Assembly (NCBI GenBank): GCA_020348985.1
Contig: CP070761.1
Location: 207,996 to 222,754 of the forward strand
DNA from: Candidatus Thorarchaeota archaeon
GTDB lineage: Archaea > Asgardarchaeota > Thorarchaeia > Thorarchaeales > Thorarchaeaceae
DNA: 14,759 nt
Direction: 5' to 3'
The notes below the pieces were generated by a model. It had not been told where the DNA came from. It ran no database searches and saw only the letters and a list, made by a program, of their open reading frames with translations. Of this stretch, positions 4,803 through 9,487 are shown piece after piece. Position numbers and translations under genes: made by a program. The number at the start of each line of letters is the position of its first letter. Positions within the stretch are counted from its first letter, which is position 1.

Positions 4803-5270
4803 ATGGATGTCTTCACGACACTGGAAGATGCGAAATCCTTTGGGAGTAGACTGGCCAAGAGGGGGAGTTTTCCGACAATCTACAAGCGTCGATCAGATGA
4901 ATACATTGTCGTCATAAAAGGAGAATGGCCCCCAAAGGAATCATGGCCTTTCCTAAAGTGGATTGGAAGAGCTCTTTACGGTAATGAAGAAACGGAAGGC
5001 TGGGTCCCAGTTCTAGCTCGACTTGATACCCTCCAGAGAGCTCAAGATGCATGTGGGCTTTTCAATCTCTTGGGTTTCGACCCCATAATCGTTCACTTTC
5101 CTGGGATTACTTTCGACATCTTTGTTAACGAGGCTCATATCCCAGTGGGCGCACAGATTGTGTTGGACGCTGATGATGACGACTTAGTACTTCAGTTACA
5201 GACAGCTCGGTTCTACGACGAGGAGGATGAGGAACACGAAAATCTGCAACTTAGAAATCAATCAGTCTAA
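4803..5270 (+). CDS. Hypothetical protein with two internal SPOR/DUF2007-like repeats and an acidic tail
   Basis: 155-aa ORF with GGAG SD. Residues 1-51 and 71-121 align without gaps. Overlaps the convergent flavin reductase by 4 bp. Confidence 0.7.
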   Translation: MDVFTTLEDAKSFGSRLAKRGSFPTIYKRRSDEYIVVIKGEWPPKESWPFLKWIGRALYGNEETEGWVPVLARLDTLQRAQDACGLFNLLGFDPIIVHFPGITFDIFVNEAHIPVGAQIVLDADDDDLVLQLQTARFYDEEDEEHENLQLRNQSV

Positions 5271-6823: not shown

Positions 6824-6869
6824 CGACTTAATCGCTACATCTTTAAGCAAACCTACTCCGGCAGTTGCT

Positions 6870-6990
6870 GGCTCGACTGCTACGTCGAGCCTCATCATTC
6901 CTTTGTGATGGCGGATGCGTCCGCATGGGATGTGGCCTTCACGGCTGAACCACAAGCAAAGCGAATTGTAACTACAAAGGAAGACAGAAT
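6870..6990 (+). ncRNA. Putative structured 5' leader (cis-regulatory RNA) of the rpl15e operon
   Basis: TTTAAG TATA-like at 6842-6847; 8-bp perfect hairpin 6870-6891; 9-bp stem 6898-6906/6974-6982 enclosing three hairpins. Confidence 0.55.
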
Positions 6991-7572
6991 ATGTCGGCTT
7001 ACAAGAGAATGAATGAAGCCTGGGTCGAGCAGCAGCAGGAGCGTTCTGAGATTATCAGAAACAGATTGATCGTCTGGCGGAAGCAAGGAACAGTTGTCAG
7101 ACTAGAGCGTCCTACGAGACTTGGAAGAGCTCGCTCACTTGGTTACAAGGCAAAACAAGGTTACATAATTGTTAGAATAAAGATAGGCAGAGGACCGCGG
7201 GAAAAGCCGAGACCTAGAATGGGTCGGAAGCCAAGGAGTCTGGGTGTCACGAAATACACACCACAGAAATCGCGTCGTTGGATTGCAGAAGAACGTGCGG
7301 CACGTAAGTTCCCGAATCTCAGAGTGCTGAACTCGTATTGGGTTGGTTCAGATCATAAGTGGGTATGGCATGAAGTGATTCTAGTCGATCCCAATCATCC
7401 TGTCATTTACAATGATCCTCAGATCAATTGGATTTGTGACCCGGTCCAGAAAGGTCGCGAAAGCAGAGGACTTACATCAGCTGGCAAGAGAAGTCGAGGA
7501 CTAAGGAAAAAGGGCACGGGTGCTGAGAAGATCAGACCCTCTCTGGGCGCCAAAAAGAATAGAGGAAAGTAG
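6991..7572 (+). CDS. rpl15e: 50S ribosomal protein L15e (eL15)
   Basis: RLERPTRLGRARSLGYKAKQG, IAEERAARKFPNLRVLNSYWVG, EVILVDPNHP, GRESRGLTSAG. Confidence 0.99.
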   Translation: MSAYKRMNEAWVEQQQERSEIIRNRLIVWRKQGTVVRLERPTRLGRARSLGYKAKQGYIIVRIKIGRGPREKPRPRMGRKPRSLGVTKYTPQKSRRWIAEERAARKFPNLRVLNSYWVGSDHKWVWHEVILVDPNHPVIYNDPQINWICDPVQKGRESRGLTSAGKRSRGLRKKGTGAEKIRPSLGAKKNRGK

Positions 7573-7603
7573 CTCCAGCGGTTTCGACTCCGAGGAGTTT
7601 CGT

Positions 7604-8065
7604 ATGCTTGGTATTGAAAGGATTGAGACCAGGGCGTACTCGTTGTCAACAGAAGACCCCGACAAAGTCAAGACTGCGATTCTGAATGTTCACGATGAAA
7701 GATTCAGAGAGAAGGTCAAGGTCACTCAGACATTGACTGAAGGACATCTGCAACTCCCGATCATAGTGATCAACAGTGCACTTACTGGAGAGAAGGCCTG
7801 TTTAGAGACCCTTTACTACATTCTAAGTCATCTGCCGCGCGAAGACATTAGATTTCTGAAGGACTCTGTGGAAAGGAGACTTGATGAGAGATGTGTGTTT
7901 TTTCTCAGGATTGATAAGCAAGCGTCCTTTCTTGGTAAACTGCAGCTATCCAAGGGTCCGGACCTGATTAGCGTTCAGATACACTTGCACCAGTATCCCA
8001 GATGTGTCCGTGATGATGCAATTGCATTCATTCTGGATCATCTAGAGAAACACGGAGATTCGTAG
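7604..8065 (+). CDS. COG1325/DUF54 predicted RNA-binding protein (exosome superoperon-associated)
   Basis: STEDPDKVKTAI, EGH..PI, FFLRIDKQASFLG..L..G.D motifs; usual position between rpl15e and rpp30. Start moved to ATG 7604 (GAGGAG at 7592-7597). Confidence 0.88.
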   Translation: MLGIERIETRAYSLSTEDPDKVKTAILNVHDERFREKVKVTQTLTEGHLQLPIIVINSALTGEKACLETLYYILSHLPREDIRFLKDSVERRLDERCVFFLRIDKQASFLGKLQLSKGPDLISVQIHLHQYPRCVRDDAIAFILDHLEKHGDS

Positions 8066-8067
8066 TA

Positions 8068-8766
8068 GTGACAATTGACCTAAATGTGAGAGTCGAAGAC
8101 CAAAACGATCTCGAATCATTTGTTACGATGGCGAAAGCTCTTGGTTTCAAGGGTATTGTCACTCCACTGAAGCTTGCAAAGCCATTCTCAAGATTAGAGG
8201 ATGATTTCTTAATCGGTACCAGGACAGAGCTGAAGGGTTCCACATTAGGATCTCTGAAGAAGGGAATTGGAACTGCTCGACAACGATCTGCTTTGGTTGC
8301 TGTTCAACTTGGCAAAACCCAAGTTTCCAATTGGGCCGCTGAAGACACGAGGGTTGACGTCCTCGCTGTAACAGATATTTCTAAGGATAACAGTCTCAAA
8401 GTGAGTACAGCAAAACTGGCTGCACAATCTGGGACCGCTCTAGAGATACCCGTTGTGCCTCTTCTTGAGACGTCTGGCCTTGACAGGTCTAAGATAATCA
8501 AGAGATATCGAGAATGTGTCCAAACTGCTGTGACAGCAGGAATGCAGGTGGTCCTGACAAGTGGTGCTAGTAAGCCCATTCAGATGAGATCAGCCGCTTC
8601 AGTGCAGTATATTGGCCAGATTTTGGGGATGGAATTGGCCTACATGCGGAAGACAGTTGATGTTACAAGAAGTATGCTTGATAGAAACGAGAGGAATCTG
8701 AGCACTGACTTCGTGGCACCTGGTGTGCACATAGTACAAAGTGGTGAGCCAAGTGAAAAAGACTAG
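8068..8766 (+). CDS. rnp3: Ribonuclease P protein component 3 (Rpp30)
   Basis: AKALGFKG, NWAAEDTRVDVL, AKLAAQSGTALEI, VVLTSGA..PIQMRS, FVAPGVHIV; GTG start; synteny. Confidence 0.92.
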   Translation: MTIDLNVRVEDQNDLESFVTMAKALGFKGIVTPLKLAKPFSRLEDDFLIGTRTELKGSTLGSLKKGIGTARQRSALVAVQLGKTQVSNWAAEDTRVDVLAVTDISKDNSLKVSTAKLAAQSGTALEIPVVPLLETSGLDRSKIIKRYRECVQTAVTAGMQVVLTSGASKPIQMRSAASVQYIGQILGMELAYMRKTVDVTRSMLDRNERNLSTDFVAPGVHIVQSGEPSEKD

Positions 8767-9058
8767 AAGAAGATACGTAAGATTCCGTCTGTTTCAAGAA
8801 GGTAAGCGAGTCAACGAAAAACAGCTAGTAACAGCTATTCGAAAGAGCATGCTCTCTCTTTTTGGAGAAATAGTGGTGGGAGACTCTAAGTTATTCCTTA
8901 CTGACTACGACACGAAATCCGGGGTTGGAATCCTTCAATGTAGTGCGCATATTCTCGAGCGAGCTCTGGCTGCAGCATCAGTCATTGGTACAATTGCTGG
9001 AACCAAAGTGTCATTTCATCCGATGAAGACATCGGGGACAATAAAGGGGCTTGGATGA
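8753..9058 (+). CDS. rnp2: Ribonuclease P protein component 2 (Pop5/Rpp14 family)
   Basis: RRRYVRF, SLFGE, GILQC, TSGTIK; overlaps the rpp30 end. GTG 8753 preferred (GGTGA upstream); 8741 is the alternative. Confidence 0.92.
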   Translation: MKKTRRRYVRFRLFQEGKRVNEKQLVTAIRKSMLSLFGEIVVGDSKLFLTDYDTKSGVGILQCSAHILERALAAASVIGTIAGTKVSFHPMKTSGTIKGLG

Positions 9059-9487
9059 CTAAACAGCGTCCTGGCCAGCTTTCAATAACACTTCTTCATA
9101 AGTCGCTCCTTCAACAATGAATGCGCGAGTTTCCCACTGACCCGTAGTCTTCGATGCAATAAGCCAGACTACGGGATTGAGCTTCATGTTCTCTAGATCT
9201 CTTGATGATGGCCGAGGAGGTGCTGGATGTGAATGGAATATTGCTACTAGCTCTTCACCTCGTTCCTCCGCCTCAATCAAGAGTCGATATTGGTGCTCTG
9301 GATCTACCGAGAAAGAGACAGCTGTTCTTTCCGATAGGTTGTCCACTGTCTCTACGTGAGTCACGGAAACAATCTCATCTTTCACAGTTCCAAACAGCAA
9401 TGCGGCCGATTCAAGCGGAAGTTGTGCTTCGGCTAAATCATGTAGCTGCGCCAAGTCTTCTTTGAGAATCTGAAGTGTAAGCGGCAC
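9059..9487 (-). CDS. JAMM/MPN+ (Mov34, M67) metallo-isopeptidase
   Basis: Catalytic E (PLESAALLFG) and HSHPAPPRPSSRD, matching E-xn-H-S-H-x7-S-x2-D. GTG start with GAGGT SD. Confidence 0.93.
   Translation of the reverse strand: MPLTLQILKEDLAQLHDLAEAQLPLESAALLFGTVKDEIVSVTHVETVDNLSERTAVSFSVDPEHQYRLLIEAEERGEELVAIFHSHPAPPRPSSRDLENMKLNPVVWLIASKTTGQWETRAFIVEGATYEEVLLKAGQDAV

Follow-up and report, generated by a model that had tools for sequence, protein, structure and literature searches.

The 5' UTR of the rpl15e operon in this Ca. Thorarchaeota genome contains a full-length member of the eL15-Euryarchaeota leader family (RF03144), joined to a family-specific extension, a putative expression platform. 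We predict that the two together form a translational switch with two states, repressed by eL15, and we give this reading, in which both the ligand and the polarity are predictions, a probability of about 0.55. Membership of the family, the conservation of two alternative pairings, as seen in one-sided changes, and the identity of the Shine-Dalgarno site that one of them covers are established. The core was already known as RF03144; what we did not find described is the family-wide Thorarchaeota extension, and this extension makes the mechanism testable. Coordinates refer to the window, the whole 14,759-nucleotide stretch of DNA that was analysed.

Operon, promoter and leader core

The RF03144 core lies on the sense strand immediately 5' of rpl15e, an arrangement that is identical in all relatives. 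The features of promoter, core and operon are as follows.

6828-6841, + strand: conserved element directly 5' of the TATA box, in the position of a BRE and unusually long, with several positions 92-99% conserved (92 leaders)
6842-6849, + strand: archaeal TATA box of the rpl15e promoter, present in 92/92 leaders (the leader search was itself anchored on the TATA box)
6870, + strand: predicted transcription start, the G of a YG initiator that follows the opening T of the TATA box by 28 nt; 87% of leaders have G here
6911-6924, + strand: P1 hairpin of the RF03144 core (Rfam alignment), paired in 100% of cells, with one both-sided change
6926-6952, + strand: P2 of the RF03144 core, with GG 6927-6928 pairing with CC 6950-6951, an internal loop of GAUGU 6929-6933 against GAA 6947-6949, and a GGCC/GGCU stem with a variable loop
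6991-7572, + strand: rpl15e, the gene presumed to be regulated, whose product eL15 is the likely ligand (PRK04243, 268.6 bits against a cut-off of 178; PF00827)
7604-9058, + strand: probable operon partners 3' of rpl15e, identified by Pfam (PF01877 RNA-binding protein, about 7604-8065; Rpp30, 8068-8766; Pop5/Rpp14, 8741-9058)

The nearest relatives of this eL15 (75-89% identity) are labelled Ca. Thorarchaeota or unclassified Asgard archaea. The order PF01877-Rpp30-Pop5 after rpl15e is kept in all Thorarchaeota loci long enough to judge, and the four genes probably form one transcript. The TATA box begins 18 nt past the stop codon of a SerA-like gene upstream. Across the 92 Thorarchaeota leaders the promoter is strongly conserved; GG is kept at +17/18 and YG at +27/28, counting from the T that opens the TATA box. 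A scan of the region for sigma-70 promoters and terminators, a method ill-suited to archaea, found nothing. About 11 nt of the element at 6828-6841 are conserved in the 92 leaders, which is more than a plain BRE, and they are absent from the tRNA promoters of the same genome; judging from this conservation, the element may include a transcription-factor site. At the other end of the operon, pop5 overlaps rpp30 by 26 nt and directly adjoins a convergent JAMM/desampylase-like gene (9059-9487) with zero spacer, so that no room is left for a separate terminator. Two loci depart from the otherwise fixed neighbourhood, possibly through insertions: L070 (genome G001, of the same genus) has about 600 extra bases between the SerA-like gene and rpl15e, and L056 about 200 extra bases 3' of rpl15e. 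Two ORFs of the window are without a Pfam match (4803-5270 on the + strand, 155 aa, and 2289-2891 on the - strand, about 200 aa).

Positions 6911-6956 match RF03144 with 50.5 bits (gathering cut-off 33.7, E 2.9e-07), covering model positions 1-48 of 48. The identification as an eL15 leader put forward in an earlier note on this DNA is borne out by this match which, being strong and full-length, removes the lineage-specific novelty that the note had also suggested. In P2, the Rfam register (GGCC 6934-6937 with GGCU 6943-6946) is paired in 96-100% of cells (53 leaders), and both ViennaRNA and RNAalifold pick the same register, whereas the inner pairs of the second arm of the cloverleaf drawn in the earlier note are present in only 53% of cells. 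Its third arm reaches only 49-57% of cells, and the drawing is wrong in both of these arms. The unpaired internal loop of P2 is near-invariant and common to distant archaea, and this region is the putative eL15 site. P2 partly resembles a bulged-G module (PMC7247131).

The alignment also bears on the second idea of the earlier note, in which a tRNA mimic of 85 nt would be cut by RNase P at about 6898 and give feedback on RNase P subunits. A multi-branch fold of this size with a closing stem does sit before rpp30 and pop5, and an RNase P RNA is present in the genome. However, ARAGORN reported 0 genes, the Rfam tRNA model gave no match up to E 5, and where a T arm would be expected there is a weak arm (49-61% paired), whose loop varies and lacks a T-loop consensus. 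The closing helix begins with U, the first linker has 4 nt and no 3' CCA follows the stem, while the 5' strand has a second partner and the core is already accounted for as RF03144. We consider a tRNA-like substrate barely credible.

RF03144 matches occur in 26/26 host-family genomes, with one copy each directly before rpl15e. In a sample of 150 genomes from the phylum, six genomes of three other families also have a match. Among 41 genomes of the class Bathyarchaeia, 4 have one. Sediment metagenome rows already present in the published RF03144 alignment have exactly the core of Thorarchaeota locus L075. In other Asgard lineages (Jordarchaeum, Asgardarchaeum and possibly Atabeyarchaeia), degenerate or P1-less eL15 cores were seen before rpl15e, mostly under the Rfam cut-off (L085, L087, L097, L120, L122, L158-L160, L200). 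No eL15 core was seen at many Loki- and Hel-type rpl15e loci. One assembly (G033) has two rpl15e copies with leaders (L022, L117), which is probably bin contamination (6%) rather than a duplication.

One strand with two possible partners

We gathered 92 distinct Thorarchaeota leaders by eL15 homology, without use of the RNA motif. All 92 carry two additions to the Rfam core, a 5' hairpin at the predicted transcript start and an invariant strand. The features involved are as follows.

6870-6891, + strand: P0, 5'-terminal hairpin, structure kept while sequence and length vary; begins at TATA+25 to +28 in 68/92
6897-6910, + strand: switching strand, an anti-Shine-Dalgarno mimic; CCUUUGU (6900-6906) invariant in 92/92, with zero changes on the eL15 tree
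6953-6966, + strand: 3' tail of the RF03144 core, with which the switching strand pairs proximally (ON helix; 6901-6906 with 6956-6961 and 6897-6900 with 6963-6966, 6962 bulged)
6961-6972, + strand: weak third arm that may form in the OFF state (G-C in 90/92, a mismatch, G-Y in 74/92, A-U in 85/92, variable loop), partly broken in this genome
6974-6982, + strand: distal partner of the switching strand (OFF helix), predicted by RNAalifold and including the Shine-Dalgarno sequence AAAGGA (6976-6981)

An extended-leader model that includes the additions matched 26/26 host-family genomes once each and 0/124 other genomes of the phylum. The extension formed by P0 and the switching strand is not in Rfam, and we found no description of it in the literature searched, with most subscription papers outside the reach of the search. 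P0 is stable (median z -2.9): z is below -2 in 79% of leaders, compared with 9% for control DNA taken from 5' of the promoter. It probably serves as 5'-end protection or as a folding insulator. A terminator function for P0 is unlikely, as the hairpin begins at the predicted start site and is followed by no U-tract.

The distal pairing covers a functional ribosome-binding site. AAAGGA pairs with the 16S 3' end, with which the switching strand has UCCUUU in common, and the AGGA of rpl15e lies 9 nt before the ATG, at the genome-wide peak position for AGGA (9-10 nt before starts). Among 1118 genes of the genome, 35% have a Shine-Dalgarno interaction at -7 kcal/mol or better, versus 7% at control positions. 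Shine-Dalgarno use in this genome is real, and the closing helix hides a functional site. A perfect complement of at least 9 bp to a gene's -22 to -5 region, located 30-120 nt upstream, was found for only 2/1118 genes; a closing stem like this one would therefore rarely arise by chance.

The eight core pairs of the OFF helix are paired in 99.5% of cells. Conservation in relatives, which the earlier note had named as a check, holds for P1, for P2 in the Rfam register and for the closing helix across the Thorarchaeota leaders. The elements it had placed by eye are present in the sequence (TTTAAG at 6842-6847, a perfect 8-bp hairpin at 6870-6891, the first arm at 6911-6924 and a 9-bp closing stem, 6898-6906/6974-6982). 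It was also right that this stem hides the ribosome-binding tract, but it overlooked that the 5' strand has another possible partner, exclusive of the first. Folding better than shuffled sequence is found for 6865-6995 (z -2.63, 2/200) and 6870-6993 (z -3.0), but the 85-nt junction alone is marginal (z -1.77, 10/200).

Mapped on the eL15 gene tree, about 26 of the 27 changes at distal paired positions swap A and G opposite a U; the unpaired base adjoining the distal strand, by contrast, varies freely among all four letters. A-G-only changes within a Shine-Dalgarno site could also be a purine preference. In 32 leaders U6906 faces a G, yet it is never replaced by C, which fits a base that must pair with a tail A as well. 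All 92 leaders have C at 6972, two nucleotides 5' of the distal strand; this base could join G6961 in the weak third arm, which overall is paired in 61% of cells. The arm has a C-A mismatch in most leaders, and the invariance of C6972 is therefore not fully accounted for.

The proximal pairing is widely kept as well. The ON helix has 13 pairs, with 91% of cells paired, and its bulged base 6962 is the most variable position of the tail. With P1 and P2 held fixed, 87/92 leaders can adopt an ON fold in which 6 bp or more join the strand to the tail, and 92/92 can adopt the OFF fold. In the nascent prefix, before the distal strand has been made, the proximal helix is dominant in 88% of leaders, with a median probability of 0.96. 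Four strongly diverged tails (L006, L018, L021 and L076, with 5-9 differences from the consensus) have retained or improved the pairing. Compared with a mutational null, 10 of 12 deviant tails lie above the null mean and two are no better, and only one reaches p 0.01 on its own. Support for tail pairing thus appears real but modest. As the 5' strand is constant, no compensatory change on both sides is seen in the core of either switch helix, and the whole-structure shuffle controls are borderline (20-113 of 500).

The main rival to a switch is a leader with a single state, in which a true closing helix hides the Shine-Dalgarno site, no distinct ON helix exists, the junction breathes for ribosome loading and eL15 locks it shut, so that tail complementarity would be accidental. 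In its favour, the consensus fold has the distal helix, which most leaders prefer at equilibrium (a median probability of pairing of 0.91, versus 0.01 for the proximal one). Both partners share one 6-mer, and proximal complementarity could thus be a by-product. The tail is also older than the strand: the A-rich tail is conserved in non-Thorarchaeota leaders of other archaea, just before the Shine-Dalgarno site, where no equivalent upstream strand appears. As the tail is kept where the strand is absent, it probably has a role of its own, e.g., protein contact, and the weak third arm could account for part of its conservation. Left unexplained by a single state, however, are the bulged and most variable tail base between conserved complementary blocks, the retained pairing in diverged tails and the complete invariance of the 5' strand. 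We regard this alternative as rather unlikely.

The energetics place demands on the two-state switch that we prefer. The ON fold is less stable than the OFF fold by 3-6 kcal/mol (median 4.5; 3.6 in this window), and the computed barrier between them is only about 7 kcal/mol. As OFF already wins by about 4.5 kcal/mol without protein, the ON state has to depend either on a 30S subunit loading early or on stacking in the junction, which the model leaves out. A closing helix that is short, rich in A-U and G-U pairs and within a few kcal/mol of an alternative fold could also melt or equilibrate without any ligand, as a thermosensor-like or dampening leader. The near-invariant unpaired loop of P2, kept across distant archaea, suggests instead a macromolecular ligand, and we think a protein-independent leader very improbable.

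Proposed mechanism and ligand

In the mechanism that we propose, transcription would begin at about 6870, and the 5' hairpin would cap the mRNA. In the computed folding order, 6897-6910 would pair first with the tail at 6953-6966, closing a three-way junction and leaving the Shine-Dalgarno site open (ON). When eL15 is in excess of free 23S rRNA, it may bind the core together with the unpaired A-rich tail. The released strand would then pair with 6974-6982, a helix that is both computed and conserved, hiding the Shine-Dalgarno site and blocking initiation (OFF). The freed tail could form the weak third arm, and the OFF state may then be a four-way junction in a register unlike that of the earlier note. 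The downstream PF01877, Rpp30 and Pop5 genes may follow through translational coupling. In this genome and its relatives, the spacer of about 30 nt between the rpl15e stop codon and the PF01877 gene (7573-7606) often appears to fold into a small hairpin over a purine-rich, Shine-Dalgarno-like tract. Such a hairpin would fit translational coupling, relaying eL15 control to the downstream RNase P genes.

That eL15 is the ligand follows the prediction for the family, and the polarity follows from autoregulatory logic and the conservation of the tail. The authors of RF03144 named eL15 as its ligand on the grounds that no gene other than rpl15e is consistently regulated throughout the family (PMC7247131, Table 1). 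The same authors considered rRNA mimicry by the leader unclear and proposed no mechanism, and they note that only a handful of archaeal cis-regulatory RNAs have been confirmed or even predicted (PMC7247131). No demonstration of eL15 binding to any RF03144 member was found in the literature searched. For ribosomal protein leaders in Asgard archaea, follow-up tests of the eL15 leader and contacts between L15e and rRNA, the search yielded only PMC7247131, with most subscription papers outside its reach.

A real switch could also respond to another protein (L7Ae via a kink-turn-like GAUG/CUGA pairing, the PF01877 protein, Rpp30 or Pop5), or binding could stabilise the ON state. GAUG (6929-6932) and CUGA (6945-6948) resemble box C and box D, and synteny of the downstream genes extends to all Thorarchaeota and to several further core-bearing archaea, so genomics cannot separate the ligands. 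The box C/D register, however, clashes with the GGCC/GGCU stem and is without a proper bulge or a canonical stem, and CUGA and GAUG are not retained in haloarchaeal members. Against another ligand also stand the consistent regulation of rpl15e across the family, cited above, and the single copy of the leader in this genome, where no second copy was found. We judge these variants unlikely. By inspection of the alignment we did not find the tandem G-A pairs and the 3-nt bulge between two helices, and a kink-turn or box C/D site for L7Ae was rejected.

Validated archaeal autoregulatory leaders include those of uL1 in Methanococcus and the L7Ae kink-turn leaders in Sulfolobus, in which the protein site lies near the initiation region. 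Feedback by a ribosomal protein at the level of translation, as proposed here, is alike, but no matching kink-turn or uL1 site was found in this leader. In bacterial r-leaders and translational riboswitches, a ligand domain is coupled to one strand, for which the ribosome-binding site and a second segment compete as pairing partners (anti-RBS and anti-anti-RBS). The coupled-strand logic of these platforms resembles ours, but there is no sequence or structural homology, and the Thorarchaeota leader is archaeal and its ligand predicted.

This assembly, 86% complete, yielded no 23S rRNA, and helix 11 was therefore taken from relatives. Its bulged-G region in 23S rRNA is, we assume, a contact of L15e. 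The Thorarchaeota 23S has GAA and then AAGCA three bases on, and the 3' strand of the leader has GAA and then AAACA or AAGCA four bases on. In the rRNA, however, these bases form a hairpin loop opposite a strand with AGUA, whereas in the leader they form the tail, opposite a strand with AUGU. This likeness may serve as a lead only.

In common with the eL15-Euryarchaeota leader (RF03144; Eckert and Weinberg 2020, PMC7247131), the Thorarchaeota leader has P1, P2 with the AUGU/GAA internal loop, the A-rich tail and a location in the 5' UTR of rpl15e. The Rfam model ends at 6956, whereas here an additional 5' hairpin, an anti-Shine-Dalgarno strand and two alternative helices are present. The distance from core to start codon is about 38 nt here and 19 nt in two TSS-mapped Euryarchaeota examples, and the host is an Asgard archaeon, not a euryarchaeon. 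The general anti-RBS mechanism of bacterial r-leaders and translational riboswitches is described in PMC7247131.

More speculatively, it is possible, though we hold it with less than even confidence, that the Thorarchaeota grafted a riboswitch-style, co-transcriptionally ordered two-helix platform onto an ancient eL15 leader, with eL15 flipping the anti-Shine-Dalgarno strand and, via translational coupling, metering Rpp30 and Pop5. RF03144 is a computational prediction without a mechanism, and the Thorarchaeota form offers a concrete ON/OFF readout with defined compensatory mutants. Direct tests of the ligand, the polarity and the function of the A-rich tail thus come within reach, either in vitro or with a reporter in Haloferax or Thermococcus. 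If the proposal is true, the leader would be among the very few conformational RNA switches known in archaea, with none for Asgard archaea in the literature searched. It may thereby point to autoregulation, at the level of the Shine-Dalgarno site, of a eukaryote-type ribosomal protein in Asgard archaea.
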